Assembly: GCA_043780595.1 (NCBI GenBank)
Contig: JAYWCL010000143.1
Coordinates: 333 to 64,332 of the forward strand
Length of the DNA stretch: 64,000 nucleotides
Direction of reading: 5' to 3'
DNA from: Limnoglobus sp.
GTDB taxonomy: Bacteria; Planctomycetota; Planctomycetia; Gemmatales; Gemmataceae
In this document: positions 14,512-36,693 of the stretch, one piece after another
How the letters are laid out: each line of letters begins with the position of its first letter
How positions within the stretch are numbered: the first letter of the stretch is position 1
Program-made: the position numbers and the translations under genes
The notes under the pieces: model-generated
Seen by the model: the letters and a program-made list of their open reading frames with translations, nothing else
Told to the model about the DNA's origin: nothing
The model's database searches: none

Positions 14512-16611
14512 TTAAATCTTGTCGATCGAGTCGATCCAGACGCACAATTCCAATAGCGTTTCTTGCAGCATATACTCTTTGCCGAAGTCTTTCAGTTGGC
14601 GATAGATCACCGGGAAGCGTTTGTCGATGAGTGCCGGTTTGCTCTCGGCGATGGTTTTGATTGCGGGATCTTTTTCCCCGCCGACAATGTAGAACGAGAG
14701 CGGTTGGTTCGGGAGGTTGTCCTTCGGCTGCGTGCCGAGCGATGCCCCCGTGGTGGCGACGCCGCGGATCGTGTCGCGGGCGTTGAAGCCGAGGTAGAAG
14801 CCCATCTGCCCGCCGACGCCCATGCCATGCGCGATCACCCGCGAGCGGTCGATCGTGTATTGCCCGAAGACTTCTTTGACGTCTTGCACGACGCCTTCAG
14901 TTTCGCTGGCGACCCAACCATCGTTGCTCTGCGCCTTCGGGCCGACCATGATGTAGTGGAAGTCTTCGAGAAACGGCCGCCAGATCTTGACCATGTCGTC
15001 GGCATCTTTACCGCCCTTGCCGAGCGGGTGTAGCCAGATGATGACGCCGTGCGAAATGTTCGGCTTGTAGTTCAGCGGAACGAACATCCAATATTCGCGG
15101 CCCAGCGTCGCATTCTTTCGCTTCAACAGTCCGAGTTCCGGTTCCTTTTTCTCGTCGTCTTTCTTCTCGTCGGCCTTCGGTGGATCCTTCGGTTTCACGG
15201 GAACCGCCATCGGCCCGCCCGCGATTGTCTTCGGCTTGTCCAGAGCTTTCTCAAATGTCGAAGGCAACGGCAACGCGGCGGGGAGCGTCTCCGGCACCGC
15301 GGTCAGGCGTAGCGTTTTCGTCTCGGTTTTGCCGCCGTCTTTCCGCTTCACTTCGATCTTCACTTCGTCGCCCGCCGCGAACTTGTTGACGATCGTCGAC
15401 ATCTGCGCACGGCCCTGAATCACCGCCATTGGCGGTACGGGTTGACCGGGTGCGCCGACGGGGGCGATCTTCAGAATCCGGTCGCCGGGCTTTAGGCCCG
15501 CTTCCTCGGCAGGGCTTTGCGGGAAGACGAAACGGATCTCGACGCCGAGTTCGGGGTCGTCGCGCATCGGCAAGATTCCGATGAACGGATTCGCGAACGC
15601 GGTCACCGCACCGGATAGTTTCACGGCGGGGAATTCCATCTCTTTGCTATCGCGAATCACCTTGATCGTCACCGAATCGCCTTCGTACTTCGGTCCCATA
15701 ATGTGCATGAGTTGCGTGTAATTCGCGACCGGTTTGCCGTCGATCGAAACGACCTTATCGCCGACCTTGATCCCCGCCTTCGCTGCGGCCGAATCGGCAT
15801 TGACGCGACCGACGACGACATCGTCGAGGTACAACTCTTGGCTTTGCGCGGTGATGCCGATCAGGCCGCGGCGAAGGTCTTTGCCTTCGCGCAACTTCGG
15901 CAGGATCGCGAAAATGTCTTCGAGCGGAATCGCGAACCCGATGCCGGAATCGTACCATTCGACGCCCGCCGTCTCGGCTTCGCCACGCGGCGACGCGGGA
16001 ACGAGAATGCCTTGCACGCGGCCATCGATTGCGATCAGCGGCCCGCCATAATTCACCGGTGACACCTTAGCGTCAGTCTGGATCGCCTTGCCGGAAATGC
16101 GACCGAGTGCGCTAATAATTCCCACGCTCATCGACGGCGGCGTATCGACTTCGGGCATCAATGCCCGCCCCAACGCGAGCGACCACTGGCCGACCTGGAG
16201 TTCCGCATTTTTCACCGCCACTGGCACGGGAAGGTCTTTCGCATCGACTTTCAGTAGCGTTAGCATCCGCGTAGTATCGTTCGCGATCACCTTGGCCACA
16301 AGCCGCGTGGGGCGACCGGGGATCGTCACGAAAATGTCCGAAGGCTTGTTCGCAAAGTTGAAGGCGCTCGTCAGGATGTAGCCATCGGCGGCCACGATCA
16401 CGCCCGTGGTGGGGCCGCGACCTTTCCGCACGCCGCCCGCCGGCGCACCGGCACTGTCGGTGCCGCCCGCCGTTTCGATCTTCACGACCGAAGGGGCCAC
16501 CTTCGCGGCCGCAGCCTTCATCGTCTGCTCGTTTTTCTCGTTCAAGTCTTGTGCGAACGCGGAACACGCAACGAGGAACAAGCTCAGGAAGGAGATCGCA
16601 TACCGAATCAT
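14512..16611 (-). CDS. HtrA-like pseudoprotease: trypsin fold, two PDZ domains and a C-terminal alpha/beta-hydrolase-like domain
   Basis: Signal peptide. Triad positions read TSAFNF / TRMLTL / SPVNYGGPL (no His, Asp or Ser). Hydrolase elbow reads HGMGVGG (no Ser). Confidence 0.85.
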   Translation of the reverse strand: MIRYAISFLSLFLVACSAFAQDLNEKNEQTMKAAAAKVAPSVVKIETAGGTDSAGAPAGGVRKGRGPTTGVIVAADGYILTSAFNFANKPSDIFVTIPGRPTRLVAKVIANDTTRMLTLLKVDAKDLPVPVAVKNAELQVGQWSLALGRALMPEVDTPPSMSVGIISALGRISGKAIQTDAKVSPVNYGGPLIAIDGRVQGILVPASPRGEAETAGVEWYDSGIGFAIPLEDIFAILPKLREGKDLRRGLIGITAQSQELYLDDVVVGRVNADSAAAKAGIKVGDKVVSIDGKPVANYTQLMHIMGPKYEGDSVTIKVIRDSKEMEFPAVKLSGAVTAFANPFIGILPMRDDPELGVEIRFVFPQSPAEEAGLKPGDRILKIAPVGAPGQPVPPMAVIQGRAQMSTIVNKFAAGDEVKIEVKRKDGGKTETKTLRLTAVPETLPAALPLPSTFEKALDKPKTIAGGPMAVPVKPKDPPKADEKKDDEKKEPELGLLKRKNATLGREYWMFVPLNYKPNISHGVIIWLHPLGKGGKDADDMVKIWRPFLEDFHYIMVGPKAQSNDGWVASETEGVVQDVKEVFGQYTIDRSRVIAHGMGVGGQMGFYLGFNARDTIRGVATTGASLGTQPKDNLPNQPLSFYIVGGEKDPAIKTIAESKPALIDKRFPVIYRQLKDFGKEYMLQETLLELCVWIDSIDKI

Positions 16612-16658: not shown

Positions 16659-17768
16659 TCACGGTTTCTTCGGGGCCATCGGCTTAGCGGGGTATTCGCC
16701 GAGTTCGATGTCGATCGATTGCAGGTTGTCGCCACGACGGACTTCGAGCCGAATCTTCGATCCGGGCTTCGTGCGTTTCATGAAATCGCGAAAGCCGTTG
16801 ATGCTGTAAATCGGCTCGCCGTCGATGAAACTCACGAGGTCGTCGACCTTCAAACCGGCCTTCGCGGCCGGCGAATTCGGGAACACGTCATCGACGTAGG
16901 GCGGCGTGCGGTCGAGTACGTTCGGCACGAACACGATGCCGTGATACCCGCCGATGCCAATGACGATGTCCGGGCGTTTCACGGGCTTATACTTGCCCTG
17001 CATCCCGAGTTCGACGAACTTCGCGAGGCCAATTTTCACCGTCTTGTCGCCATCTTTTACGTCGACTTCGGCACCGATCGGGATCGCGTAGTTCATCCAA
17101 GTTTCACTTTGCGTGTTGCGAATTTCCTTGCCGATGACGCCGAGGAGGTTGCCCTTGCGGTCGGTGAGTGCCCCACCGCCTGCACCGGGGTTGTTCGTAA
17201 TCGCATCGACGATGTAGACATCGCCGGTGTACGGGAAGTCGAAGATTCCGCGTCGCCCGTGCATCTTTGTGTACGCGGCCACGACACCGCGTTGCACGGT
17301 CATCGCTTCGTCGCGCATCGCGATTTCAAACGAGTTGCTGAAGCCGAGAACCCAGTCGCCCGGTTGGGCACGCGGTCGTTTGAGTTCCTCCGCAAACGAA
17401 AAATGTTCGAGTTCCAGCCCCGTCGGCTCGTCGATCTTTTTCCCTTCGACGCGGAGTTTCAAGATCGCTGCATCGAGTTCGGGTTCGGTCACGAGCACCG
17501 TTGCTTTCAGCTTTCGCCCATCGTGCAGGTGAACGACGATCTCGGCCGAATCGAGCATCTGGCTGGCCGACGTCAGGATGTGACCATCGGGCGAGATGAC
17601 GATGCCCGTGCCGTAATTCGACACGCCGCGAAAGCCACCCGCGCCGAACAGTTTCACGAGCTTCTGATTCACTTTCTCGGAAACCGCGTGGAACGGATCG
17701 GCCGCCATCGACGCCGTCGTGGCCGCTATTGCGAGTATCATCGCCGTCAGCATTCGCATGATGTTCAT
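16659..17768 (-). CDS. HtrA-like pseudoprotease with one PDZ domain
   Basis: Signal peptide. GHILTSASQM (no His), LDAAIL, NNPGAGGGAL (no Ser); PDZ SPAAKAGLKVDD. Confidence 0.85.
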   Translation of the reverse strand: MNIMRMLTAMILAIAATTASMAADPFHAVSEKVNQKLVKLFGAGGFRGVSNYGTGIVISPDGHILTSASQMLDSAEIVVHLHDGRKLKATVLVTEPELDAAILKLRVEGKKIDEPTGLELEHFSFAEELKRPRAQPGDWVLGFSNSFEIAMRDEAMTVQRGVVAAYTKMHGRRGIFDFPYTGDVYIVDAITNNPGAGGGALTDRKGNLLGVIGKEIRNTQSETWMNYAIPIGAEVDVKDGDKTVKIGLAKFVELGMQGKYKPVKRPDIVIGIGGYHGIVFVPNVLDRTPPYVDDVFPNSPAAKAGLKVDDLVSFIDGEPIYSINGFRDFMKRTKPGSKIRLEVRRGDNLQSIDIELGEYPAKPMAPKKP

Positions 17769-17771
17769 CTC

Positions 17772-19571
17772 TTACTTCTTCATGTTGAACGATGCAAAAT
17801 TCAGTCGGCCGTAGTTCTTGTCGCCGAAACGGACGTCGACGCGATGCGGCAATTGTCGCCCTTCGACGGTTTTATAGTCCGAGAAAAACAGTTCGCACGG
17901 GTCTTCTTCGCGAAGCACATACGCCTCGCAGGCGAGTAGTTTCCGGTCGGTTTGGCTGAAGAACCACTTGCACTCGATCGAGGCATGTTTCGTGCGTAAC
18001 ACTTCGCAATCGACGCGCTGCTTCGACCAATCCTCCACGGGGCGGCCATCGAGGTGTGGCGGGTAGATTGGCTCGGTGCCGCCGTGCGAGACGCCGAGTT
18101 CGAATGCCTTCGAGGTCGGCCCCATCGCGAGCAAGCGACGGTACTGATAGAGTGCCGCGAGCAATCCGCCGCTGTTATCGGGCACCTGTAACTGCGCCGG
18201 GCCGTTGGCCCCATCGAGCGGGTGGTAAACGAATTCGACGTTCATCGTCAGCTTCGCTTCGGGGTTACCGTCGGCGGCTTCGCCAGCAATCAGCGTCAAC
18301 GGTCCGCGACGTTCGTTCGCATCGAACGAGCCGCTAATCGCCCAGTTGCCGGGGAAGCCGGTGAAGTCGCCGTGCTTCGCGAAACCTTCCCAAAGTTGCT
18401 TCTGGCGCAGGTCGTTGAAGTAATAATTCGCGAAGCCTTTCTTCTCTTTGAACAGCTTCATCGCGGGCGATTTCTTCGCGCGTTCCTTGGCGGGGTCGGG
18501 CCGTTCGGGTTGCGGTGGCTTCGGCTGCGCCGCCGCATCGACGGGTGCATCTTTCAAACCCATCAGCCGCACGAGCACATTCTTTCGCGTGTTATCGCGG
18601 CGGTAACTCAGCGGCATTCGCCACTCGCTCGGGAAGATGCCGAGGATGTTCTTGTACTGGTTCGTGCTCGTCAGTGGGCGGCCCGCGAACGAGATGATCT
18701 TGTCGCCGGGCTTGATGCCGCGACGAAACACGTCGGCTTCTTCGAGGATCGTGCCGAACTTCATCTGGTTGAGTGCGCCGTCTTCGTTCTCCGTCTCGAT
18801 CGTTGCCCCGAGCGTGGCATGATCGGTGTCGATTCCCGAATAGAAGTGGCCGAGGAAGTTCTTGATCTGGTTGATCGAAATCGCGTAACCGACGCCGGAG
18901 TTCACGCGGCCGCGTTTGTCGAACGAGCCGCGGCCGTTAATGCCGATCAGTTCGGCTTTCATGTTGAACAGCGGCCCGCCCGAGTTACCCGGATTGATCG
19001 AGGTATCGATCTGAATGCAGTCGGTGTATTCGAGCATCCCGCCGCCTTCGGGCGGTTGATAGCGGTTCACACCGCTAATGAGGCCGTACGTGACCGTCGG
19101 GTTGAAATCGTTCGCCAAACCGAACGGGTTGCCCATCGCGAGCGACCAATCGCTGACGCGGACTTTGTCGCTATCGCCGAGCGGCACGAACGGGAACGGC
19201 GTGCCCGCTTTCTTCGGCAATAACTTGATGAGTGCCACATCGCCGACTTTGTCTTGGCCCACCAGCACGGCATCGTAAAGGATGCCATCAGCGAGGCCCG
19301 CTTGCATGACGGGGCTGATCGAATCGGTGACGTGATAATTCGTGAGCGCGTAGCCTTCGGGGTCGATGACCACGCCCGACCCGACCGCCTGCCCGCCATA
19401 CGAACAGACCGCAACCACGGCCGGTTTCACCTTGTTGACAACCGCAATCCGCTCGTTCTCGGCTTTCAAAACGTCGGCATCGACGGCGGCATTCGTCGGC
19501 CACGCAACGACGACAATCGCCAACGCCGTCGGCACGAAACACGCCAACCAAACCCGCAACGAATCGCGCAT
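17772..19571 (-). CDS. Active HtrA-like serine protease with PDZ and a C-terminal extension
   Basis: Signal peptide; LTNYHV / GDVALIKL / INPGNSGGPL all intact. Confidence 0.88.
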   Translation of the reverse strand: MRDSLRVWLACFVPTALAIVVVAWPTNAAVDADVLKAENERIAVVNKVKPAVVAVCSYGGQAVGSGVVIDPEGYALTNYHVTDSISPVMQAGLADGILYDAVLVGQDKVGDVALIKLLPKKAGTPFPFVPLGDSDKVRVSDWSLAMGNPFGLANDFNPTVTYGLISGVNRYQPPEGGGMLEYTDCIQIDTSINPGNSGGPLFNMKAELIGINGRGSFDKRGRVNSGVGYAISINQIKNFLGHFYSGIDTDHATLGATIETENEDGALNQMKFGTILEEADVFRRGIKPGDKIISFAGRPLTSTNQYKNILGIFPSEWRMPLSYRRDNTRKNVLVRLMGLKDAPVDAAAQPKPPQPERPDPAKERAKKSPAMKLFKEKKGFANYYFNDLRQKQLWEGFAKHGDFTGFPGNWAISGSFDANERRGPLTLIAGEAADGNPEAKLTMNVEFVYHPLDGANGPAQLQVPDNSGGLLAALYQYRRLLAMGPTSKAFELGVSHGGTEPIYPPHLDGRPVEDWSKQRVDCEVLRTKHASIECKWFFSQTDRKLLACEAYVLREEDPCELFFSDYKTVEGRQLPHRVDVRFGDKNYGRLNFASFNMKK

Positions 19572-19729: not shown

Positions 19730-20956
19730 TCATTTCTGAAGGCGTGCCTCGGCGAGATCGATCTGGTTGCCGTGGAACAGGCCATCGCGTTCCAGCGTGA
19801 TTTTGAGTTCCTTCACGCCCTTGACATCGAGGTTCAGTAACCTCGGTTTGTCCTTCCGCGAGATACTTTCGGCAAACAGTTTCTTGCCGTCGGCTTCGAT
19901 GGTGAGCGTGACCACGCTCGTAGCCAGTTGCACCGATTCGTCGATCCCGACGATGGCTTTGAACTCGCGATACTCGCCCGCCAGCTTGTACGTGAGCGAC
20001 GTATCGGGGTAGATCCATACGCCTTTTGCGTAGTTCGTGCCATCGAGTTTGAACGCGGTCTTTTCGTCGGTCTTGTCGTTGAAGTACGTGAAGTACGGCT
20101 CGCCCGGCGTCGGCATCGGCGCGACCACGACCGGTTCGAGGTCGGACAAGTACGCGATGTTACCCTGCGAGAAATCGAGCTTGGACAAACCTGCCGTCGT
20201 AGGGTACTCGAACGTCGCCCCGCTAACCGTGGTGATTCGCAACACGCCGCCCTTCAGAAGCTGCACGCCTTTCGCGGTGAGAACGTTCCCGAAGACATCG
20301 ATTGCCCGGCATACCGTCGGCGGGATCGCCCCGCGCGATGGCTGGTTGAAGACGATGCCACCGGTCGCACGGGTGAGCTTGAACGCCACCTTTTGCCCAT
20401 CCGATTCGCGCTCGAAATCGATCGAGTCGCCCGCTTCATTGCCATCGAGCACGGTGCCGGGAATCGGGCTGAAGCCGTCGGCTTGTTTGATGACGAAGAG
20501 ATCGCGTTTGCCGCGTGTCTTGAGGAGTTGCTTCCACTCGTCGCGGTTTTTCTGATCGTCGGCCCCACGAAGCACCGAGAACACCGTTTCAGTCGGTAGG
20601 TCGATCTTCGGGGCGGCAGTGACTGATCCGATAATCAACGTTGGCTCAAACTTTTTACCGCGAATTTTCAGGCCCGAACAGCGGATGATCGAGCCGTCGA
20701 TCAGTTCGATTTCATCGAACTTCGTGCCCTTGGCGATCGGATCGACTTTGGATCGAAAATCGACGACGAACATATCCTTAACGGCGATACCGATATTGCC
20801 CGCCGCTTCGGTGCGGAAGGTGACGATGCCATCGTTGATGCTCGCGATGTCGCCGAGATATTTCTTGCCGGTGAGCGTGCTGATCTCGGCCGCTTGTGCC
20901 GAAACCATCGCGATACACAAGGCGAGCACAGCGAAAGCACGTCGGATGGTGTTCAT
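19730..20956 (-). CDS. Exported NPCBM/NEW2 domain protein
   Basis: Signal peptide; C-terminal YLSDL...YAKGVWIYPDTSLTYKL...FKAIVGIDES...LDVKGVKELKI. Confidence 0.8.
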   Translation of the reverse strand: MNTIRRAFAVLALCIAMVSAQAAEISTLTGKKYLGDIASINDGIVTFRTEAAGNIGIAVKDMFVVDFRSKVDPIAKGTKFDEIELIDGSIIRCSGLKIRGKKFEPTLIIGSVTAAPKIDLPTETVFSVLRGADDQKNRDEWKQLLKTRGKRDLFVIKQADGFSPIPGTVLDGNEAGDSIDFERESDGQKVAFKLTRATGGIVFNQPSRGAIPPTVCRAIDVFGNVLTAKGVQLLKGGVLRITTVSGATFEYPTTAGLSKLDFSQGNIAYLSDLEPVVVAPMPTPGEPYFTYFNDKTDEKTAFKLDGTNYAKGVWIYPDTSLTYKLAGEYREFKAIVGIDESVQLATSVVTLTIEADGKKLFAESISRKDKPRLLNLDVKGVKELKITLERDGLFHGNQIDLAEARLQK

Positions 20957-21142: not shown

Positions 21143-22222
21143 TTATGGTTGAACGCCGTTGACCTTGTTCAGCGATTTGAAATACTCCTCGATCATTGGC
21201 CGGTATTTCGGCGGCAGATCGCGAGTGATTTCCTGGATCGCCTTCGCTCGCTCGGCGGGGGGCAGAACGCCCCACGACTCGGCTAGCTTCTTGAGTTTCT
21301 TCTCGCCGACTTTGCCATCGCCCGAACCGCCCATAATCATGCTGTCCGCTGCGGGACCGCTAGGAGTAACAGTGCCACCTTGACCCGGCTGACCGCCGGA
21401 GGGGCAATTTCCGCCGTTTCAGGCACCCCCTTTGGCTTGGTTCTCCAGTTCCTTGATCTTTTCGTCGAGGCGGAACACAATCTTCTTTTGAATGTCTTGC
21501 GTTTGTGGACCACCGCGAGCGAGGTCCAGGCGGCGACCGCTGTTATCCATCAGTCGGCCGATGTTCGCTAAGTCCTTCTGATCGGCAGACCAATTCTGCA
21601 TGTCGAAGAACATCAGCGTGGCGACCATCTTGTAGCGGTCGGGGGCGTCGGCGACATCGTCCAGCAGGCGAACGATCGATCCGTTCGCGAGTTCTTTCTG
21701 GATCGTCGCATGTTCGGCAACGGCCTTGTAGAAGAAGAACGCAGACGGCTCGACGACGAACTCCGCACGCACGGACTTCAAGGCTTCGAGGGCTTCTTCG
21801 TAGACTCGCTTCGAGGAGAGTGCCTTGGCGTAAGCCGTGGCAATGTTCGCCCGGAAGAAGTCGTTGTTCTTGACGTCCTTGATGATCGACGGCACCGACA
21901 TCGGCGGCATCGCATCGGGGTTGCGGGCATCGAGCAACATCGCTTCGGCTTCGGTACTGCCGAGGAGTAAGCTATCGATCGTGCGATCGAATACGCTACG
22001 CGATTCGTTCGCCCAAATTTTCTCGAACGCACCCGCGTCCATCTTACCGATGGATCCGAGCCACTCGGCGGATCTGGCCTTCGCTTGGTCGGCCGGAGCC
22101 GTCCGAAGCGTACCGAAGGTATACACCGTCGGCTTCGCAGCTTCCGCAGCGATGGCAGGTTGGGATATTGAGATTGTTACCGCTGACATCGCAGCGGCAG
22201 CAATCCACTTACGAAGGGCCAC
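21143..22222 (-). CDS. Exported TPR-like/coiled-coil protein with an in-frame UGA at codon 268 (candidate selenoprotein, 359 aa)
   Basis: Track ORFs 21419..22222 and 21143..21340 share a frame with no other stop between them: ...ELENQAKGGA-(UGA)-NGGNCPSGGQPGQGG...ADSMIMGG...SWGVLPPAERAKAIQEITRDLPPKYRPMIEEYFKSL. GTG start after GAGGAGG; signal peptide. Confidence 0.7.
21373..21406 (-). promoter_or_regulatory. Candidate bacterial SECIS hairpin 3' of the UGA
   Basis: mRNA UGA AAC GGC GGA AAU UGC CCC UCCGGC-GGUCA-GCCGGG UCAA GGUGGCA. Upper stem UCCGGC/GCCGGG with GGUCA loop; lower stem UGCC/GGCA plus CC/GG. Confidence 0.55.
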
Positions 22223-22368: not shown

Positions 22369-24291
22369 CTACTGATTCGCCCCGGTTGCGATCTTCTGCA
22401 CCATGTCTTGCAGTTTCGCCTGACGCAGGGAAATCTGCCGTAGTTCCATTTGAATGATCGCGTCCGAAGCTTGTTCGCCCTGATACTTTTTGCCGTACAT
22501 CAGCGTGCGGCTGTTCACTTGCATCTGGAATGCACGAATCAAACGCAGTTCCGCGAGCAGGTCGATCAGCTTCTTGTTTTGCGGTTTGTTGTTGCTCGGT
22601 TTACTTTGACTTTGACCGCTTTGGATGTCTTGCTGTGCTTTTTTGAGTGCCTTCACCATGTCGTCGAGCATCGCGATGATGTTCTCTTCGATCTGCTGCG
22701 TGTCGGTATCGACGTAGCATTCGAGCAATCGGCGTTGCACGGACTGCATATCGCCTTTCACTTCTTCGAGAACTCGCGCAAACGCGACTGCGGAGCCTTC
22801 GCTTTCGAGTAGCTTCAACGCCTTCTCGGCCTCAGCGATGATCTCGGTTTCCTTGTCGCCTTGTTGCTGCGATTTCTGACGGTCGGCAGTGGTCTTCTCG
22901 TTGCCGTTTTTGACAATGCCTGCGTGAATCAACTTCGTGCTTTCGTAAACTTCCTTTTGCATCGCCAACATGCGATTGCAGCGTGCCTCGAGGGCAGCGA
23001 GCGTCTTGAGCATTTCTTCTTCGCGTAACTGATTCAGCTTCTTTTTCAGTTCGTCGATTGCTTTGGCGAGTGCCTCGATCGCTTTATCTTCTTTCTTGGC
23101 GGCGGCGTTGCGGTCGTCTTTCTTCAAGTCCTCTTCGGCACCCTTTTGTTGCGGATACGCTTCTTCGACGTTCTTGCGTCCGGGCGGAGCTTGCGCTTGG
23201 TTCGGTGGTGGCGGCGGGGCTTCGCCGGGGGGTGGAGGTTGCCCGCCACCCTTGGAACTCGCCTGTTGGTCGCTCGGCTTCGCGTCGCTGCCTTTGCCCT
23301 TCGCTTCGCCACCCGGTTTGCCTTCGGATGGCTTGCCTTCACCCTTGCCCTTGCTGGCGTCTTTGCTCTCCGCAGGTGGGCCAGCTTTGGGTTCGCCCGG
23401 CTTCGGTTCGGCCTTCGGTTCACCCGGTTTCGGCTCGCCCGCCTTCGCTTCGTCATCTTTACTCGGCTTCGGTTTGCCGGCATCGTCTTTTGGCTTCGCA
23501 GGTTTCGCTTCGCCGCCGGCTTCGCCAGGTTTCGGCTCGCCTTTGTCGCCGGATTTCGCATCTCCCGTGTCGGCCTTCGGCTCGGCGCTACTTTCGCCGG
23601 GCTTGGCATCGGACTTCGGTTGCGATTTCGGATCGACCTTCGGGCCAGCCGGCTTGCCTTCGGTCTTCTTGCCACCCATGCGGTCGATCAGATCTTTCGT
23701 ATCGGCAGCGACATCGGCCTGATTCTTCGCGATCTTGTTCGGGTCACCCTTCGCCGATTCCGTCATCGCGCGAATGATCTCTTCGCGTCGTTTCAGTGCC
23801 TCCGCATCTTTCAAGAACCGTTCGAGTTTCTCGATCTCGGCTTTCAGACGTGCCGATTCATCGTCGGTCATCAGGATGTTGAGCATCTCTTGAAGCGCTT
23901 TCGCCAACTCGCCGTTTTGACCGAGGAGTTGATCGACGTCTTGAATCTTATTCGAGCCTTTGCTGAGGCCCGTGATCAAGTTCTTATACTGGTTATCGAC
24001 GTTGGCTTTCTCGGCGACTTCGAGTGCCGCACGGATCGTCTTCGAGCGATCTTTATCTTCCTGGCGGTCGCTCTTTTCGAGCTTCTGAGCCAAAACGAGC
24101 AAGCCACGTTTGAGGTCTTGGAACAGCTTGGCATTCTGTTCCTGCGGCCCGCGCAATTCGGTTGCGGTCTTCGGTGGTGGCGCATCGGCAGGCGGTTTTG
24201 GGGCTTGTGCGACGAGAGATTCGCTGAAAACGAGTAGGCCGAGAGCCACGGCAACGAGTGGTGCGAAGGTAAGGGGAATCCGACGGTTCAT
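22369..24291 (-). CDS. Exported coiled-coil protein with a long Pro/Lys/Gly/Glu-rich linker (DUF4175-like)
   Basis: Signal peptide; heptad-rich ends; low-complexity KPGEPKAEPKPGEPKAG region. Confidence 0.75.
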   Translation of the reverse strand: MNRRIPLTFAPLVAVALGLLVFSESLVAQAPKPPADAPPPKTATELRGPQEQNAKLFQDLKRGLLVLAQKLEKSDRQEDKDRSKTIRAALEVAEKANVDNQYKNLITGLSKGSNKIQDVDQLLGQNGELAKALQEMLNILMTDDESARLKAEIEKLERFLKDAEALKRREEIIRAMTESAKGDPNKIAKNQADVAADTKDLIDRMGGKKTEGKPAGPKVDPKSQPKSDAKPGESSAEPKADTGDAKSGDKGEPKPGEAGGEAKPAKPKDDAGKPKPSKDDEAKAGEPKPGEPKAEPKPGEPKAGPPAESKDASKGKGEGKPSEGKPGGEAKGKGSDAKPSDQQASSKGGGQPPPPGEAPPPPPNQAQAPPGRKNVEEAYPQQKGAEEDLKKDDRNAAAKKEDKAIEALAKAIDELKKKLNQLREEEMLKTLAALEARCNRMLAMQKEVYESTKLIHAGIVKNGNEKTTADRQKSQQQGDKETEIIAEAEKALKLLESEGSAVAFARVLEEVKGDMQSVQRRLLECYVDTDTQQIEENIIAMLDDMVKALKKAQQDIQSGQSQSKPSNNKPQNKKLIDLLAELRLIRAFQMQVNSRTLMYGKKYQGEQASDAIIQMELRQISLRQAKLQDMVQKIATGANQ

Positions 24292-24363: not shown

Positions 24364-27300
24364 TTACTTCACCCGAATTTTCACTTCGACCAGCGAACCG
24401 GCTGATGGCACCAACCGTATCGTATATTCGCCGGGTTTCGTGCCGGCTGCAAGTTCATAATCGACGGTTTCTTTATCTTCGGGCAATGCGATTTCTTTCG
24501 GGAAGGTCAGTTCGCCGTTCTTCGGGCCATCGCACTTCACGACGAGTGCGCCGCCCGTGTACGCTTTCCAGTTGATCGCGTGGCTCAACTTTTTCTTTTC
24601 GCCCATCGCCAATTCCACTAGTGGGATCGCGGCGATTTCTGGCAGGTACAAGCGGTCGAGAATTTCGCGACGGAAGCTGGATAGCGACGCTCCGACCGCG
24701 AGTTGGTTCTTGCGTAACTTGTCCAATGCGCTACGGATGTTGCTCAGGCTGATCGCTTCGCCGAGCTTTTCGCGTAAGTCCGATACGGCCCGAATCACCT
24801 CGGCGAGATCGCGTTTGTCCGCTTCGATCAACGGTTCTTCGGGCCGTCGTCCTTCGATGAGTGCCGTCTGCAATTGCGCGTGCGATGCCTCCGATTGGGG
24901 AAACAGTTTCTCGGCAATCGTCGTGAGGTCGCCGATCTTGCTGCGGTAACCTTTGAGTGTCTCTTCGCGAATGTCGTTGAACGTGGCTTCGCGTTCGAGC
25001 CGTCGGAACTCGATGAGAATCCCGTTCGTCATGTCGTGGCCTTTGCCGATGTCCTGTGCGACATCTTGCGAACGCACGGCTGCGTTGGTAATCACTTCGG
25101 CGGCGGGGTTCGGGCTGAGCAGGCGTTCGCTCGTCTGGTTGAGTTTCGTCTGCGCGTCGCGGAGTTTCTTGAGCACATCGTCCAGCTTCGAGGCCTGCGT
25201 TTCTTCGTCCTTCGACATTTCCGCAAGTAGCTCCGCCTCGGAGATAACGAGCAAGCGAATCGGCTCCAAACTTTGTCCCGTCTTCGGCCCCGTTTCGTAG
25301 TTCGCGTCGGTCGCCAACAAGTTCATTTCCAGTTTGTATCGCGGTTGCAGTTTGTTGGGATCGCGCTCGAGCAGAGCCGGTATCGCGACTTTGAGATCGA
25401 ACGCATCGAGTTCCTGATTCGGGAAGCGTACCTCACGGACCACTTGCGATTTGTCCGGGTCGGCGGGTTTCGCGAGTTGTTGCAACAGGCTTTCCTTCGT
25501 GTTCGCGTTCAGCTTCGCGAAATCTTCCTGGAACCGCGTCACGGGGAACGATCCCGTCGTGCGTTGCCCACTATTGTCGGCGAACATCGCCATCGTGAAC
25601 GTGGCGCTCGTCAGCGGCACCAGTGCGGCGGCGATCGTCGGCGAGAGCGGGGCACCCGCCCAGATCCCGGCGAGCGCGTTCGCTTTGACTTCGGTCACGA
25701 CCTGTGCATCTTGTTGCGCGTAGTTGTATGCGAACACGACTTGACTCAGTGCCGCATCGTCTTTCACTTTGCTCTCGGTCACGAACGGGATGCGGGCAAC
25801 CGGCGTCACGAGGTAAGTGTTGCCTTGTTTCCGAAGCACATCGACCGCCAACTCGACTTGCGGCGGTTGGTCTTCGGTTACGGTCACCAAGATCGATCGC
25901 GTCGATGTCACCCCGTCTTCATCGACGAGCACGATTTCAAATTCGATCGTTTGCAAAGGTCGGTCGGCGTCGCGGAACGCGATCGAGAATCGATCACGAG
26001 CGTCGCCTTCGGGTTTCAATTCGAGTGCTTCCACCGAACCGGCAGCGAGGCCCGGAATCTTGCCGATCTTTGGGCGAACGAGCACTTTTTGAAGTGCCTT
26101 GTCGGACTGCCCATTCAGTTCGAACACGGTGCCTTGAATAATCGAGAACACCGACTTGTCGCCCGTCAGTGACAGATCCTTGTCACCGATGAGTTGGCGC
26201 AGGCCTTTCAGGTCGGCAAAATTTTGGCGTGGGGCTTTCGGGTCGGCACTCGCTTCGCGGATCGGCGGGGCGTGGTACAAGTACGCGGGCTGGAGTTCGG
26301 TGCGGCTGAGTTTGGCGAACATCGGTGGCGGCACGAGCGTGACGACCTTCGGCATCGATGAGAAGTCCGCAGCGCGAACCGCGAACCGGATCGACTCTTT
26401 CAACCCAGAGATTTCGCCGACGAACTCGTTGTTCGCTTCGCGGTTCAGGTTCACGCGGCCACCCGTTTTAATGCCGTTGTACGACAGGCTGACCGCTTCC
26501 GGAATGTCGAGCTTCCGCAGTATCCGGCTGTACTTCGGGTTCACCGCTAGCCGTTCGAGTTTCTCGAACACCGTGCGAATACCTTCCGCATTGCCCGCCA
26601 CTGCTTCGATGCGGTCGGCGTCCCAACTGGCAGCATCGGCCGGGAGCGGTTTGCCGTCGTTACCCACAATGGCGGGCGTGATGGCAACCGGTGCGAAACC
26701 GAGCATCTTTGCATTGAGATCCGACCAGCCGAGCGGCCGCCAACCGTGGACGGCGCTGCGGTCGACCGTCACCCACTTGTAGGCCCGCGTGCGGACTTTC
26801 GGCGAAGCCGCATCTTTGCCGATCCGCATTTCGCTGTTCGGGAACCCGACGAATTCGAGGTGCGCTTTCCGTGGCCACGGCGTGTTGCGAAGTAGCAGGT
26901 TGCGTTCGCCCCAGATCGCCGCCACGTCGCCGAATTCTGCTGAAAAGCGCTTCACGGAAACTTGGCGCGTCACGATCGAGAAACCGACGAACGCGGCGAG
27001 CAGAATCCCGAGGGCGAAGCCGATGAGCAGCACCGCCTTCCACTTCAGGCGATACCAGTTGAACACCGAACTCACCGGCACCAGCGCCACTCGTTCGCGG
27101 GCTTCGTCGATCGTCTGACGGATCATCGTTTCGGAGTAACCGAACGATTTCATCTTGTCGATATCGGCGAGTTCGACGGCGGTGATCAAGCGATCGCCGA
27201 GGATTTCGGGGAAGCGCTTTTCGAGGACCAGCGCGAGTGCCGGGTACGAGAACGACTTCGTCAAACGGAACGCGAGTCGCGTAACGAGAATGCCCAGCAG

Positions 27301-27564
27301 CAGCACGCCGAGCGAGATGAGCGCCACCGCACGGAGCGCCTTCGGGGCATCGAGCACCCAGTCGAACGCCGTCGCGCGGAAGACGCCGTAATCGAGCGCC
27401 ATGCCGAGCCAAAACCAAAGGATGACGAACAGCCCCGCCGTCAGCAAGCCATCGCTCAGCACGTATTGGCGGATGCCAGAACGCAGCAGTTCGAGCGGGT
27501 GAACGATCTTCGCGTCCACGCCGGTGTCTTCGGTTTTTGTTGCGGTCGAGGCAGCCATTTTCAC
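24364..27564 (-). CDS. Multi-pass membrane protein with Ig-like and coiled-coil periplasmic region
   Basis: Three N-terminal TM helices, LVLEKRFPEILGDRLITAVEL, EDQPPQV, C-terminal coiled coil. Confidence 0.75.
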   Translation of the reverse strand: MKMAASTATKTEDTGVDAKIVHPLELLRSGIRQYVLSDGLLTAGLFVILWFWLGMALDYGVFRATAFDWVLDAPKALRAVALISLGVLLLGILVTRLAFRLTKSFSYPALALVLEKRFPEILGDRLITAVELADIDKMKSFGYSETMIRQTIDEARERVALVPVSSVFNWYRLKWKAVLLIGFALGILLAAFVGFSIVTRQVSVKRFSAEFGDVAAIWGERNLLLRNTPWPRKAHLEFVGFPNSEMRIGKDAASPKVRTRAYKWVTVDRSAVHGWRPLGWSDLNAKMLGFAPVAITPAIVGNDGKPLPADAASWDADRIEAVAGNAEGIRTVFEKLERLAVNPKYSRILRKLDIPEAVSLSYNGIKTGGRVNLNREANNEFVGEISGLKESIRFAVRAADFSSMPKVVTLVPPPMFAKLSRTELQPAYLYHAPPIREASADPKAPRQNFADLKGLRQLIGDKDLSLTGDKSVFSIIQGTVFELNGQSDKALQKVLVRPKIGKIPGLAAGSVEALELKPEGDARDRFSIAFRDADRPLQTIEFEIVLVDEDGVTSTRSILVTVTEDQPPQVELAVDVLRKQGNTYLVTPVARIPFVTESKVKDDAALSQVVFAYNYAQQDAQVVTEVKANALAGIWAGAPLSPTIAAALVPLTSATFTMAMFADNSGQRTTGSFPVTRFQEDFAKLNANTKESLLQQLAKPADPDKSQVVREVRFPNQELDAFDLKVAIPALLERDPNKLQPRYKLEMNLLATDANYETGPKTGQSLEPIRLLVISEAELLAEMSKDEETQASKLDDVLKKLRDAQTKLNQTSERLLSPNPAAEVITNAAVRSQDVAQDIGKGHDMTNGILIEFRRLEREATFNDIREETLKGYRSKIGDLTTIAEKLFPQSEASHAQLQTALIEGRRPEEPLIEADKRDLAEVIRAVSDLREKLGEAISLSNIRSALDKLRKNQLAVGASLSSFRREILDRLYLPEIAAIPLVELAMGEKKKLSHAINWKAYTGGALVVKCDGPKNGELTFPKEIALPEDKETVDYELAAGTKPGEYTIRLVPSAGSLVEVKIRVK

Positions 27565-27594: not shown

Positions 27595-30500
27595 TTACGC
27601 AAGCCGTGTCGTTTTGCGAACCGCCCATTCGATTGCGAGCAGGCCAATTGCGGCCACGAGTAAATAGCTGACGTTCACCACTGCACTCGTGAACCAACTC
27701 GTCATCCACGACGGCAGTGCGAACGGCGTGTCCCAGAGGTCTTCGACCGGGCCGCGGTTGCGGAACTCTTTCCGGTCGGCCTTGATGCAGTACGGGATCA
27801 GTCCGAGCTTCTCGCGTTCGGCGATCTTGAACGCCAGCTTCACGCGGGCTGGGTCGGTTGCACTCCCCTTTAGGCGATCGAACACTCCCGGCTCGGTGAT
27901 CTTCGCTTGCACGTCTTCGAGTGTGTTCGCTGCACTGATGAGCGCGTTGAAATCCGGTCGGGCGTTATCGAGTTCGGGGTCCGATTTCCGCACCATGAAC
28001 TCGCCGGAGATCGTGTCGCCGGGGCTATCGGGAATATCGACGACGACCTTGTACTTGAAGTCGCCGGGCGGGAACAACTTCGGGTCCGCGAGCACCTGTG
28101 CGGTGTAGTAACCGTCGAACCCCGATGCGCCTTTCTTCGAGGCGAGCGGGTACGGGCCAAATTTCTTTTTCGATGTGCCATCCGAATCGAGTTGCTCGAC
28201 GATAAACTTCGGGCTGATCGCATCGGGCAGGTACGGCCGACTGTTCGGCGCGAGTAACCGCGTCTGCACGCGGATCATCGAACCGGAGGTATATTCCTTG
28301 TTTACCAGCACCTGCCCGCGGAACGACTGCACGTTCCGCCGCGCGGACGACATATTGCGAGCGAGGCGAATCCAGAAGCGATCGAAGTAATTCGGATCGA
28401 CCGCCCGCGTTCGCCACATCTGCCCCCACGCCAGGAACGCCGTGCGACCGCGGCCCGGCTGATTCGCCACGAAGTACGGTTTCGCCTCGGCTTCGCCGCG
28501 CTCGTTCACGTCGAGAATTTCCATCAACACCGCCGCACCGGGCTTCGTGGCCTTCAGCGGATAGTACGAGAAGAAGCCGTTCTTCGGGTTCAGGTTCTTC
28601 TTCTGGTCCGCGTCGGGCACGTACTTGTCGCGACCGGTGAAGAAGCGTTCCCAACCCGCCGTCGGGTCGTCGGCCACGGTGTCGTCGAGCTTGAGCACGT
28701 CGAAGTCCGCGTTCGGTTTAATCAGCACGCGCCGCGGGCTGCGGGGCGTCGGTCGCGCTTGCATCAAAATGATGTCGTCGGGCAATGCGCAAAGCATCTC
28801 GAGCGCGGGCTTGAGTCGCCCCGTCTCGTCGGCGCGTGCCAATTGATACGTGTGAATCGGCCCCGCGACATACACGAAGCCGCCGCCGCCATCGACTACC
28901 CACGTACGCAAGTCTTCGACTTGTGCCGCCGAGAGTTCGGACCAGTCGGGGTCGAACGCGATGATGAGGTCGTACTCGTGCAAGTTGTAATATTTGTCGT
29001 CGGGTTTGTCGGTCGCTTTGCTCGTCACATCGAAGCGGTTCGGGAAGCGAATCAGCAACCGGTCCGGCGAGACATCTTGCACGATGTTCCCCGCCTGGCC
29101 GCCTTCATTTTGCAAAAACACGCTCATTTCCGCACGTTTCTCGTTCACTTCGCGCATCAGTAATGTGCGTAGCGTCTGGTACTCGCGCGTCGGACCGCTC
29201 GCCCACAGCAGAATCCGTAGCGGACTTTCGAGTACCTGAACGAGCCTTGGCGGGCTGATGTGCTCGGCGTTCGGGAATACCTCGCGCTTGTCGCGTGCGA
29301 TCCGCGCGACCATCGACCACGCGCCTTGTTTCAGTTGTTTACGCTTGCCCGCACGGATCGCCTCTTCCTTCTTCGCGTCTTCGGTCAACGCCTCCGGCAG
29401 CTTGTCGGCATCGATCACGAACTCGACTTGTCCGTGCGGCGGTTCGCCCGTCTGGAAAGTCAGTTTCGCGACCATTTCGTGGTCGGGCAGGTCTTTCTTC
29501 GGGTCGCGCGTCGGCAGGTAAATTCCGAGTTTCACTTCGACTTGCTGCTTCTCCAACCCCACACCATCGGCTTCGACGATCACTTTGTGCGGTTCGTCCG
29601 GTGGCACGCGATCCGGTGCTTGCAGGTCCGTGATGCTGATCGCGATGTTCTCGCGCGGCTCGCCGACGGCCACGGTGAAGATCGGAATCTTCTCGCGGCT
29701 GGCACGTTCTTTCAGTTCGGAATATGCCGACGACGAACCGAGGTTGCTGCGTCCATCCGTGAACACGATCACCGCTTGCACCATGTTCGCCGCCTCGCGA
29801 TTCACCGCCGACGTCACCGAATCGGGCACGTTCGTGCCGACCATGATCGACCGTGCGACATCGATTCGCTTTTCGAGTTTGCTGCGATTATCGAGCAGAA
29901 CCTTGGCATCGTCTTCGGTTAAACCCGCAATCACTTCGGCTTCGGGCAGCTTGCCCCAGCCCGTTGCCCACTCGGCGGTTCCCGGTTCGACGCCTTTCCA
30001 CGCGGCCGATTTGCGAACCGTCTCCGCACCGACTGGCGACAGGCCACGCAACACCCACGGCTTGAAATCGTACTTCGTCCAGGCGTCCCACTCGGCTGCC
30101 GTCCAGACGGGGGAATCGTTCGCAATGAGCTGCGATTCGTCGTCGAGCCGCGAGCCGAAACGGTAGACGTTGACGGGGTGGCTTTCGATCAGCTTTTTGA
30201 GGAAGCCGACTTTGTCGTCGGTGAGGAAGTCGAGGACTTTACTCAATCGCGTCGTCGGTTTGGGTGCCGCTGTCGTTGCGAAATCGTCGCTGATTTGCGA
30301 CACGCTCGGCGAGACATCGAGGAGTATCACTACCCGCGAATTCTTCTCGACCGTCTCCCACGTCTGGTTCGCCGGTAGCAGGAACGCAATCGCCAACAGA
30401 ACGTACACCGCCAACCGCAGCATCGCGAGCGGGGTGGCAACGTACCAGTGGCAGGTGCGGCTGTCGCGACGATACATCCAACCGATGAAGAACGCGCCGA

Positions 30501-30633
30501 CGAGCAACACACCCGCGACGAGTACCCACCAGCAATAGGCGTTCGACTCCGGCGTCGCGAACGGAAACGCATCGCTCACCCGGCGAAAAATCAGCTCAGT
30601 ATCCCGTGTCGCACCCGTGTCATTCATCGACAT
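27595..30633 (-). CDS. Membrane-anchored vWA protein with a class I glutamine-amidotransferase-like domain
   Basis: N-terminal TMs, MIDAS LLDVSPS, FTDG, LRILLWASGPTREYQTLRTLL, C-terminal TM LLAIEWAVRK. Confidence 0.8.
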   Translation of the reverse strand: MSMNDTGATRDTELIFRRVSDAFPFATPESNAYCWWVLVAGVLLVGAFFIGWMYRRDSRTCHWYVATPLAMLRLAVYVLLAIAFLLPANQTWETVEKNSRVVILLDVSPSVSQISDDFATTAAPKPTTRLSKVLDFLTDDKVGFLKKLIESHPVNVYRFGSRLDDESQLIANDSPVWTAAEWDAWTKYDFKPWVLRGLSPVGAETVRKSAAWKGVEPGTAEWATGWGKLPEAEVIAGLTEDDAKVLLDNRSKLEKRIDVARSIMVGTNVPDSVTSAVNREAANMVQAVIVFTDGRSNLGSSSAYSELKERASREKIPIFTVAVGEPRENIAISITDLQAPDRVPPDEPHKVIVEADGVGLEKQQVEVKLGIYLPTRDPKKDLPDHEMVAKLTFQTGEPPHGQVEFVIDADKLPEALTEDAKKEEAIRAGKRKQLKQGAWSMVARIARDKREVFPNAEHISPPRLVQVLESPLRILLWASGPTREYQTLRTLLMREVNEKRAEMSVFLQNEGGQAGNIVQDVSPDRLLIRFPNRFDVTSKATDKPDDKYYNLHEYDLIIAFDPDWSELSAAQVEDLRTWVVDGGGGFVYVAGPIHTYQLARADETGRLKPALEMLCALPDDIILMQARPTPRSPRRVLIKPNADFDVLKLDDTVADDPTAGWERFFTGRDKYVPDADQKKNLNPKNGFFSYYPLKATKPGAAVLMEILDVNERGEAEAKPYFVANQPGRGRTAFLAWGQMWRTRAVDPNYFDRFWIRLARNMSSARRNVQSFRGQVLVNKEYTSGSMIRVQTRLLAPNSRPYLPDAISPKFIVEQLDSDGTSKKKFGPYPLASKKGASGFDGYYTAQVLADPKLFPPGDFKYKVVVDIPDSPGDTISGEFMVRKSDPELDNARPDFNALISAANTLEDVQAKITEPGVFDRLKGSATDPARVKLAFKIAEREKLGLIPYCIKADRKEFRNRGPVEDLWDTPFALPSWMTSWFTSAVVNVSYLLVAAIGLLAIEWAVRKTTRLA

Positions 30634-34431: not shown

Positions 34432-35499
34432 TTACGATGCGAAAATCTTCTTGAACCGGTCGTCCTTCTCCAAATCGCCTTCTTTGTCGGGCGTTTCGTC
34501 GAGGATTTTCTTCACGACGATATCCGTGGTGATGCCTTCGGATGCGGCCGTGAAGTTCGTCAACAACCGGTGACGCATGACGGGCAGTGCGAGTTTCTTG
34601 ATGTCTTCGGTGGTCACGTGCGGTCGGCCATTGAGTAGCGCTCGTGCCTTCGCACCGAGAATCAGGTTCTGCACCGCACGCGGGCCAGCGCCCCACGATA
34701 GCCATTCGCGGATGAACTTCGGCGCGCCGCCTTCGCTGATCCGCGTTTGACGCACGATCGCGAGGCAGTAGCGGATGATGTGGTCCGACACCGGCACTTT
34801 GCGAACGAGATTTTGCAACTCGAGGATATGTTCGCCCGTCAACACGGGGGCGATTTCCTCGACTTGCAACGCCGTCGTGCGGCGAGCGATTTCAAATTCT
34901 TCGTCGAAGCTCGGGTAGGTGACGAACACCTTGAACATGAAGCGGTCGAGTTGGGCTTCGGGTAGCGGATACGTGCCTTCTTGCTCGATCGGGTTCTGCG
35001 TGGCGAGCACGAAAAATGGGCTGGCGAGCTTGTGGCGAACGCGACCGACCGTCACCGTACGCTCTTGCATCGCCTCGAGTAGCGCGGCCTGCGTTCGGGG
35101 TGGCGTCCGGTTGATTTCGTCGGCGAGTACGATGTTCGAGAACAGCGGGCCAGGGCGGAACTTGAGGTCGATCCCTCCCGTGATTGGGTTCTTCTCGATG
35201 AAGTCCGTGCCGGTGATGTCCGCAGGCATCAAGTCCGGGGTGAACTGAATGCGGCTAAAATCGAGCGACAGACACTTCGCCAACGACGAGATGAGCAACG
35301 TCTTCGCGAGGCCCGGCACGCCTTCGAGCATACAGTGGCCGCGGCTGAACATGGCGATCAGCAGTTGCTCGATGACTTCGTCTTGGCCGACGATCACGCG
35401 ACCGAGTTGGTGCTTCAGATCCTTGTAAGCCGTCTGAAGTTTCTTGATCGAAGCGATGTCCGTGTCTTCGAGTTTGAATGCAGGCGTATCGACGGTCAT
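34432..35499 (-). CDS. MoxR family AAA+ ATPase
   Basis: [10 protein letters not shown] (Walker A), [22 protein letters not shown] (Walker B), [22 protein letters not shown]. Confidence 0.95.
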
Positions 35500-36682: not shown

Positions 36683-36693
36683 CGTACGATACC

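Follow-up and report, generated by a model that had tools for sequence, protein, structure and literature searches.

Bacterial genes that encode selenocysteine (Sec) rely on a recoding mechanism of which E. coli fdhF is the prototype and which is captured by the bSECIS model of Zhang and Gladyshev. In such genes an in-frame UGA aligns with Cys, a stem-loop situated 3′ of it within the coding region forms the Sec insertion sequence (SECIS), and decoding involves SelA, SelB, SelD and tRNA-Sec. The classical requirement, known from the E. coli fdhF/SelB system, is a G and a U in the apical loop at a fixed distance from the UGA. The apical loop of fdhF is reportedly GGUC, and the spacing accepted by the bSECIS model is said to be 16-37 nucleotides (nt). 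The gene considered here lies on the minus strand (22222..21143) of a 64,000-nt stretch of Limnoglobus sp. DNA (assembly GCA_043780595.1, contig JAYWCL010000143.1; hereafter the window). The TGA that splits it is almost certainly read as Sec, and the whole very probably forms one gene, whose product is an exported 359-residue selenoprotein. It shares with the fdhF-type genes all the properties listed above, including a loop beginning with GGU and a spacing of 24 nt, which falls within the range of the model. It differs from them in belonging to an uncatalogued protein family and in the location of its SECIS in the coding sequence of a disordered linker, where it dictates the peptide S-G-G-Q-P-G. 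A further difference is that some relatives contain two UGAs 15-18 nt apart, with the hairpin after the second.

The inventory of 119 prokaryotic selenoprotein families and subfamilies published in 2026 (PMC13188914) includes TsoB (UxxxxU) and thioredoxin-fold UxxC/CxxU proteins, with which the present protein has in common a close chalcogen pair, the interchange of Sec and Cys and, in some relatives, a C-x2-U arrangement. The fold, helical-repeat instead of thioredoxin-like, sets it apart, as does the U-x4-C-P motif, which is absent from the inventory. Every entry there carries a domain identifier (PMC13188914), and none of the Pfam, TIGRFAM or NCBIfam models concerned picks up the protein. 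Families with cd or PTHR identifiers only (TlpA/Prx, CopZ-like, BtuF, Fe-S oxidoreductase-like) are set apart by their descriptions, and none resembles the helical-repeat model. Planctomycetes are not mentioned in the main texts of PMC13188914, deep-Sep, BSepDB and the 2016 ISME J survey. A literature search found no paper tying a selenoprotein to Gemmata or to Bat-like operons, or listing a U-x4-C family, which is not proof of absence. The preliminary description of this locus, made from the sequence, had called its operon one not known as selenium-dependent, and this holds against Pfam, NCBIfam and the 119-family inventory. What is new is the protein family, which is uncatalogued; recoding follows the known bacterial mechanism.

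The operon that houses the gene recalls the Bat (Bacteroides aerotolerance) or MoxR-DUF58-BatA-vWA operons with their TPR components BatC and BatE. A role in defence against oxidative stress or in periplasmic redox has been proposed for Bat operons, and no Bat protein is known to be a selenoprotein. A passage of PMC3557215 links them to oxidative stress, without proof. Co-directional MoxR AAA_3, DUF58 and BatA_N+vWA genes and a TPR-like scaffold are shared with them, and the operon described here differs in being much larger, with three ∼1000-aa proteins, an NPCBM protein and three HtrA-like proteases. Cysteine pairs that act as shuttles on flexible loops or tails occur in the C-x4-C loop of Ero1, in the C-terminal pair of mercuric reductase and in the GCUG tail of thioredoxin reductase. 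A possible analogy with these lies in the two-chalcogen pair on an unstructured Gly-rich segment, which might swing from one partner to another, and in the C-x4-C spacing. The protein studied here differs in having no flavin or other catalytic domain and no sequence or structural homology to them.

A conserved UGA at codon 268

Translated with TGA written as U, the minus strand from 22222 to 21143 gives one frame of 359 codons, in which the sole internal stop is the TGA at 21421-21419, codon 268. The 267-aa open reading frame (ORF) at 21419..22222 (minus strand) and the frame running down to the TAA at 21145-21143 are one and the same, and a 65-aa ORF opened by an ATG sits downstream of the TGA. 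It had been claimed that these two ORFs are a single frame broken by this TGA and that read-through gives 359 aa with C273 as the only Cys; both points are confirmed. Two Cys are counted when U is written as C, hence C273 is the sole true Cys of the local peptide ...ENQAKGGA-U-NGGN-C-PSGGQPGQGG... and of the whole protein (the residues flanking Sec are ...GGA-U-NGGNCPSGGQPGQ...). Automatic annotation had been expected to split the gene, and gene callers do end the protein at 267 aa. The closest relative in the protein collection searched (P0002; 98% identity, 24 member sequences) is a 267-residue call ending exactly at the TGA site, and among the 150 best cluster representatives at least 13 are N-terminal fragments that stop exactly there.

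A search of a collection of 5.8 billion proteins returned more than 1,700 relatives of the 359-aa protein, the best being unbroken Gemmataceae proteins of ∼360 aa, among them those of Limnoglobus roseus and Gemmata sp. SH-PL17. When 120 sequences (the protein of the window and 119 homologs) are aligned, the column of codon 268 holds Cys in 95 homologs, Ala in 11, Gly in seven, Ser in four, and Gln and Pro in one each. The expectation of full-length orthologs with Cys at this codon thus stands for their length and for most of them, and fails for about 20%. The C273 column contains Cys in every sequence that reaches it.

The TGA itself is widespread. It occurs at the same site in seven other loci of the genome_contigs set, with 56-99% protein identity, namely in four closely related Limnoglobus metagenome-assembled genomes (MAGs) from different samples and in three divergent genomes (L023, L026 and L039, with 62, 56 and 66% protein identity, respectively). 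The gene is present in 230 of 252 species-representative Gemmataceae genomes, and among the ∼150 matches listed for these genomes ∼27 have one TGA and four have two; the TGA form is thus carried by more than 30 species-level Gemmataceae genomes of many genera, several of them near-complete (e.g. G189, G108 and G001). A metagenome scan with the pattern TGA-N19-CCGGCGGTCAGCCGGG yielded 90 stretches, at least 45 of which are the gene with its in-frame TGA. Since identical TGAs appear in independent assemblies and samples, sequencing error, raised earlier as a possible explanation, is excluded.

Translation continues past the UGA, as judged from the low ratio of nonsynonymous to synonymous substitution (dN/dS) and from invariant residues downstream. 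Over the 50 codons after the UGA, comparison with close TGA-bearing relatives gives proportions of synonymous differences (pS) of 0.20 and 0.32 for a proportion of nonsynonymous differences (pN) of 0.01, i.e. dN/dS of 0.04 and 0.02, and family-wide invariant residues after the UGA are W317, G318, R325, P337, Y347, F348 and L351. On this comparative evidence, UGA268 is a conserved sense codon that matches Cys in most orthologs.

Gene copies vary in number among genomes. Two tandem TGA-form copies are found at G135:C111:15404-17841 (L143), with a third, non-TGA copy on another contig, and in each of the genomes G121, G123 and G188 the TGA form exists alongside a non-TGA paralog.

The SECIS hairpin and the selenocysteine machinery

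Downstream of the UGA the linker coding sequence folds into a bipartite stem-loop, in which the peptide S-G-G-Q-P-G is written UCC GGC GGU CAG CCG GG. As had been described, an upper helix UCCGGC-GGUCA-GCCGGG stands on a lower stem, and the loop begins at the 25th nt after the UGA, i.e. after a gap of 24 nt. In the lower stem ∼21406-21401 pair with ∼21380-21373. The conservation and covariation anticipated for this hairpin in several genomes were also found, in many TGA-bearing genomes. A 16-nt element, CCGGCGGUCAGCCGGG, is identical, synonymous and third positions included, in all eight TGA copies first compared (the window and the seven genome_contigs loci) and occurs in none of 22 non-TGA orthologs. 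In these eight copies the sequence of the flanking lower stem varies while its pairing is kept. Genes of the L039 type have an extra residue after Sec (U-Q-NGGNC) and have lost the Ser codon before GGQPG, and the distance between UGA and loop stays at 24 nt, which argues that spacing at the RNA level is under selection.

Covariation was counted on an alignment (A1) of 22 distinct sequences of the U-x4-C class with an explicit structure. Paired cells amount to 87.9%, versus 29-53% when the 3′ partners are slid by one to three columns, and compensatory changes affect five of the nine pairs of the lower helix. For example, pair 21-44 is found as AU:7, CG:6 and GC:6, column 21 being the synonymous third base of a Pro codon, and pair 14-51 as AU:6, GC:4 and CG:3. 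None of 500 shuffles matches the observed covariation score. The two forms of the gene were also compared by a criterion specific to the loop (a stem of 5 bp or more whose loop opens with [A/G]GU 18-30 nt after a UGA), in a genome sample that is unbiased with respect to the hairpin: such a structure is found in 27 of 34 TGA orthologs and in 0 of 23 non-TGA orthologs (25 of 32 when only distinct TGA orthologs are counted, L137 being L023 and L139 being L026).

Variation around the element is of several kinds. Changes from G-C to G.U affect the upper stem in L145 and L149, L153 has CCGGGU-GGCGGCCA-ACCUGG at the same +24 position, loop variants GGUGU, GGUUC and AGUUC occur among L138, L159, L157 and L154, and L150 combines a different stem with a like loop (CUCCCC-GGUC-GGGGAG at +21). 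An Rfam scan of the hairpin region gave chance matches only. Judged by its conservation, its covariation and its tie to the TGA, the hairpin at 21370..21409 is an in-ORF SECIS.

The source genome (5.74 Mb, 313 contigs, 96% complete) encodes SelA (2.1e-143), SelB with a full-length model match (3.5e-113) and a tRNA-SeC with anticodon UCA (aragorn), and its SelD carries an in-frame TGA of its own at the canonical CAG-U-AGK site. The preliminary description had located no sel genes in the window and had made the proposal dependent on their presence elsewhere; both points are settled, since the complete set lies outside the window in the same genome. A genome scan for in-frame TGAs followed by a GGU-loop hairpin recovered the studied gene, SelD and four more genes, namely two CMD/AhpD-like proteins, an ArsC-family protein and a DUF1573 protein. 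The loops of SelD and these four are GGUC, GGUAC, GGUUC or GGUCC, located 18-32 nt after the UGA. The loop of the studied gene resembles them and so fits the SECIS pattern of the organism itself. One of the CMD/AhpD-like proteins has a weak Pfam hit; the second has none and was assigned by its similarity to the first. CMD/AhpD, ArsC and DUF1573 are catalogued selenoprotein types (table in PMC13188914). These five further genes, SelD included, are probable selenoprotein genes that automatic annotation is likely to split or truncate. From this gene content, the Sec decoding machinery is present and in use in the source genome. Sec machinery has been reported for Gemmata obscuriglobus (2016; PMC4807772), and SelA is encoded in 237 of the 252 Gemmataceae genomes. 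With SelA near-universal, Sec use is a family-wide trait and co-occurrence with the gene is uninformative.

Two groups of conserved metagenome sequences with stops in all frames also contain TGA-N19-CCGGCGGTCAGCCGGG. One group comprises L053, L055, L056, L079, L093, L099, L103, L105, L111, L113, L125 and L126, the other L047, L061, L069, L090, L108, L109 and L124; translated examples are '...SYDTLPA*FSLS*VPGGQPGGLEKKG...' and '...MGDP*N*LSSKTGGQPGW...'. Both groups have the look of conserved non-coding RNAs, or of other elements that have no connection with the gene.

Protein architecture, operon and feature coordinates

An AlphaFold2 model built from a 52-sequence alignment has a mean predicted local distance difference test (pLDDT) score of 72.7. 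In the helical-repeat domain (∼40-210) the score exceeds 90 up to residue ∼180, is still in the high 80s or more up to ∼200 and then falls to ∼80; it is ∼50-60 in the long helix 239-263 and ∼75 in the C-terminal helices 307-354. A predicted signal peptide at the N-terminus suggests export of the mature protein. In the PDB, Foldseek picked up no more than weak, generic resemblances to TPR-like structures (the best being 2hr2, E 0.037), and a sequence search gave nothing significant. No match was obtained in Pfam (E up to 0.1) for the protein or 51 relatives, nor in NCBIfam (E up to 1) for the protein. A thioredoxin fold with CxxC or UxxC at a helix N-terminus was not found, the model being all-helical with the motif in a segment of pLDDT <50. 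For a possible kinship with BatC-like TPR components, the operon context agrees, the structural likeness to TPR proteins is weak (best E 0.037), and no Pfam TPR or BatC/BatD model matches.

The MoxR/vWA/HtrA setting described previously is real: MoxR, DUF58, BatA/vWA and HtrA genes are co-directional (Table 1). From BatA to the third HtrA, gene order is identical in Gemmata sp. SH-PL17, in which the ortholog of the selenoprotein is 60% identical. Neither the C-terminal domain nor the linker has convincing similarity to other proteins of the operon. No conserved partner Cys exists in the 640-aa and 1066-aa proteins; among the neighbours, conserved Cys are confined to C216 in the NPCBM protein and to C34 and C949 in the 1012-aa protein, and their presence does not decide the matter. 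These residues of the NPCBM protein and of the 1012-aa vWA protein are candidate partners. Between the stop codon of the gene and the NPCBM gene, a GC-rich inverted repeat (GGCGGCG...CGCCGCC, then TTTGTC; 21128-21095, minus strand) could be a weak terminator, an attenuator or a repetitive extragenic palindromic (REP)-like element.

Table 1. Coordinates of the selenoprotein gene, its SECIS, its operon and other probable selenoprotein genes of the source genome (positions refer to the window unless a contig, C, is named)
Feature	Position	Strand	Basis or remark
Complete selenoprotein gene, 359 codons + TAA (operon 9)	21143..22222	-	frame translation; unbroken ∼360-aa orthologs
Shine-Dalgarno-like run GAGGAGGAG	22236-22228	-	upstream of GTG start
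GTG start codon	22222-22220	-	
Predicted Sec-type signal peptide, residues 1-25, A-I-A before cleavage site	22148..22222	-	judged by eye from sequence; low-confidence hydrophobic helix in AlphaFold2
All-helical TPR-like repeat domain and long helix, residues ∼40-263	21434..22105	-	AlphaFold2 model
Disordered Gly/Pro/Asn-rich linker with U268 and C273, residues 264-303	21314..21433	-	AlphaFold2 pLDDT <50; alignment
UGA codon 268, almost certainly read as Sec	21419..21421	-	Cys column in homologs; same-codon TGA in many genomes/contigs
TGC codon, Cys273 of C-P motif, invariant, only Cys of protein	21404..21406	-	alignment column
SECIS element, bipartite stem-loop	21370..21409	-	conservation, covariation, tie to TGA
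SECIS lower helix	∼21409-21401 with 21378-21370	-	
SECIS upper helix UCCGGC/GCCGGG	21400-21395 with 21389-21384	-	
SECIS apical loop GGUCA	21394-21390	-	
Conserved C-terminal three-helix domain, residues ∼305-355, ...WGxLP...R...LPxKY...YFKSL...	21158..21310	-	dN/dS, invariant residues, AlphaFold2
Operon 1: BamB-like/TPR protein, 1663 aa		-	
Operon 2: prenyltransferase-like repeat protein	35570-36997	-	
Operon 3: MoxR AAA_3	34432-35499	-	
Operon 4: DUF58	33469-34389	-	
Operon 5: BatA_N+vWA, 910 aa	30690-33422	-	
Operon 6: 1012-aa weak-vWA protein	27595-30633	-	
Operon 7: 1066-aa protein	24364-27564	-	
Operon 8: 640-aa secreted protein	22369-24291	-	
Operon 10: NPCBM-domain protein	19730-20956	-	
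Operon 11-13: three HtrA-like trypsin/PDZ proteins	17772-19571, 16659-17768, 14512-16611	-	
SelD (CAG-U-AGK)	C81:2314	+	GGU-loop hairpin after UGA
CMD/AhpD-like protein (C-x-Y-U)	C72 5282-6643	-	hairpin GCUCGC-GGUC-GCGGGC at +26 (given for the pair)
CMD/AhpD-like protein (C-x-Y-U)	C92 3252-4628	+	as above
ArsC-family protein (G-U-TTC-K, U-x-x-C)	C73 8854-9324	-	loop GGUAC at +22; solid Pfam hit
DUF1573 protein (T-U-GAVAC)	C116 516-938	+	loop GGUCC at +18; weak Pfam hit

Competing explanations, motif variants and history of the family

Several observations weigh against the reading of the locus as a selenoprotein gene with a Sec/Cys redox pair. The folding energy of the hairpin region is unexceptional (-28.1 kcal/mol, z = -0.62, equalled in 52 of 200 shuffles). 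Best-hairpin counts find stems of 4-10 bp in non-TGA orthologs too, the linker being GC-rich, and the coding of GGQPG yields look-alike sequences in some of them, e.g. L036 and L040. Folding energy and a simple hairpin count do not discriminate, so the significance of the element rests on conservation, covariation and the loop-specific criterion. The metagenome set was picked with the hairpin as pattern and its upper helix is invariant by construction, which is why the TGA genes of species-representative genomes were fetched regardless of hairpin; among these, seven of the 34 TGA orthologs have other hairpin types or spacings. At the protein level, codon 268 specifies Ala, Gly, Ser, Gln or Pro in about 20% of orthologs, which makes this position dispensable in some lineages; some orthologs hold a single Cys in the whole protein, and together these forms mean that a strict two-residue redox cycle cannot be universal. 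The place of Sec is thus the dispensable position and not the invariant one, an unusual choice for a catalytic Sec, and with the motif in a disordered linker of a non-thioredoxin fold no functional assignment can be made from precedent. Lastly, many distant members of the family (30-45% identity) lack the C-P motif or any Cys.

Were the TGA a true stop, the locus would be a recent pseudogene or a native split into a 267-aa TPR protein and a small C-terminal gene, with the hairpin as a by-product of Gly/Pro codons. The gene calls that end at 267 aa, the ATG that opens the 65-aa ORF, the ordinary folding energy and the look-alikes in L036 and L040 are all compatible with this, and it is nonetheless hardly credible: the same TGA recurs across many genera, in over 30 species-level genomes as well as dozens of metagenome contigs, other orthologs have Cys in its column, and the downstream 50 codons evolve at dN/dS 0.02-0.04 in TGA lineages, in the same frame and with no spacer. 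The covariation, the 24-nt spacing kept under a motif shift and the distribution of the hairpin (27/34 against 0/23) point in the same direction. Downstream hairpins can also stimulate stop-codon read-through, and the UGA might be read by a near-cognate or suppressor tRNA (Trp, Cys, Arg, Gly) with the hairpin as generic stimulator, as the TGA orthologs whose hairpins do not fit the GGU-loop type could suggest. This is very improbable in a genome in which a full Sec machinery is in use and in which selD and four other genes of known selenoprotein types carry UGA, all the more as the loop sequence and spacing match those of these genes and the classical GGUC/GU-loop SECIS. The residue aligned in orthologs is Cys, the hallmark Sec/Cys pairing, and aragorn reported no suppressor tRNA, only the tRNA-SeC with its UCA anticodon.

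A more serious alternative, though still less likely than a redox pair, accepts the selenoprotein and takes the Sec/Cys pair as a ligand of a soft metal or metalloid (Cu(I), Hg, Zn, As, selenium) or as a covalent tether to a partner. The location of the pair in a flexible Gly-rich loop without a thioredoxin-like active site would suit such a role, and so would a chalcogen spacing of 0 to 6 residues, the dispensability of position 268, the single-Cys forms and the conserved Cys of the operon neighbours (C216 in the NPCBM protein, C34 and C949 in the 1012-aa one); metal binding is also a property of several catalogued selenoproteins (table in PMC13188914). On the other side, Pfam and NCBIfam scans detected no metal-binding domain or motif, the operon contains no metal transporter or resistance gene, and the variants C-x2-U and C-U are classical redox-type motifs. 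The relatives in fact display a whole series of motifs, U-x5-C, U-x6-C, U-x4/5-U, C-U-P and C-x2-U-P, with inter-chalcogen spacings of 0 to 6 residues; in the C-x2-U-P forms Sec stands, with a TGA, at the otherwise invariant position of Cys273. These natural variants support a two-chalcogen redox pair with loose geometry and flexible spacing.

The redox reading would work as follows. SelB, with Sec-tRNA(Sec) made via SelA, and SelD would decode UGA268 as Sec, and the ribosome would continue into the conserved C-terminal domain. In the exported protein, a flexible Gly-rich arm that joins a protein-binding scaffold to a small helical domain would carry Sec268 and Cys273. The essential thiol is probably that of Cys273, with Sec/Cys268 as its auxiliary partner, since 273 is invariant and 268 is Sec, Cys or, in about one-fifth of orthologs, a non-chalcogen residue; the partner would form and resolve a selenenylsulfide or disulfide with Cys273. 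In the service of the MoxR-DUF58-BatA/vWA-HtrA envelope operon that holds the gene, the pair may thus be a redox switch or a shuttle on a swinging arm; a soft-metal ligand pair is less likely. A selenenylsulfide/thiol switch or shuttle on a flexible arm would be the likeliest role.

A bolder and rather doubtful extension makes the Sec/Cys-x4-Cys arm the chemically active element of an enlarged MoxR-DUF58-BatA/vWA-HtrA envelope machine of Planctomycetes. As a selenenylsulfide shuttle or sensor it would link the vWA, MoxR and protease components to the redox state of the envelope or else to a cargo, either a chalcogen or a metal, and lineages would have tuned it repeatedly (U-x4-C, U-x4-U with tandem SECIS-like GGUCA repeats, C-U, C-x2-U, loss to Ala or Gly). 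If true, this would provide a first mechanistic handle on the long-unexplained Bat-type operons, and Sec would be used in an intrinsically disordered tether instead of an enzyme active site.

Individual relatives illustrate the diversity of the motif. Two UGAs, with TGAs 15-18 nt apart (U-x4/5-U-P), are present in L062, L080, L107, L151, L154, L157 and L158, with a GGU-loop hairpin 21-24 nt after the second. L080 has tandem GGUCA hairpins, GCGGU-GGUCA-GCCGU followed by CCGGC-GGUCA-GCCGG. The motif is C-U-P in L076 and C-G-D-U-P in L150.

In a tree of 119 sequences, built after masking the motif residue, 23 metagenome sequences form a deep clade that is entirely Sec, and several other Sec clades lie within Cys forms; the clade of the window (seven Sec sequences) adjoins Cys clades. 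The Sec state changes at least six times, at least four of these changes being forced by well-supported branches. The near-identity of the SECIS among Sec lineages is most simply explained by an old Sec form that was repeatedly replaced, by Cys and sometimes by Ala, Gly or Ser; the direction is not pressed, as Sec forms were fished by the hairpin and Cys forms by similarity. Repeated replacement of Sec by Cys is a pattern that a passage of PMC1794560 describes for bacterial selenoproteins. The wider family, counted as cluster representatives at 50% identity, has 1,644 members at E<=1e-3 and 873 at E<=1e-10. Its motif-less distant members suggest that the chalcogen pair is an addition within a broader scaffold family, of which the C-terminal ...YF(K/R)xL... 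domain is the constant part.

The catalogue of selenoproteins gains an exported member with a non-thioredoxin fold, unusual also in having Sec in a disordered tether, at a dispensable position, and a MoxR-vWA operon as its home. A sizeable share of the family, which has at least 873 clusters (50% identity, E<=1e-10), is systematically truncated or split in public annotation. With a family protein model and a SECIS model, hundreds of gene calls would be corrected, both in Gemmataceae and in metagenomes from soil and freshwater. The natural motif series, double-Sec forms included, offers material for the study of the choice between Sec and Cys and of how one or two SECIS serve close UGAs. A residue pair of redox type is now placed inside the functionally unexplained MoxR-vWA (Bat-like) operon.

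Two further observations concern individual records. In L048 (contig WBZV01037207.1, minus strand, TGA at oriented position 557) the same module occurs in a different secreted protein, made of a signal peptide, ...EAQT-U-IQGA-C-P-PGGQPG..., a Pro/Gln/Tyr-rich low-complexity region and a C-terminal domain; U-x4-C-P is accompanied by an identical CCCGGC-GGUCA-GCCGGG hairpin 24 nt after the UGA, and the cassette of Sec motif and SECIS may have moved between genes. L021 and L035 (genome_contigs) are clear Gemmataceae-type orthologs in records labelled 'uncultured Alcaligenaceae bacterium' and are probably mis-binned or mislabelled MAG contigs.

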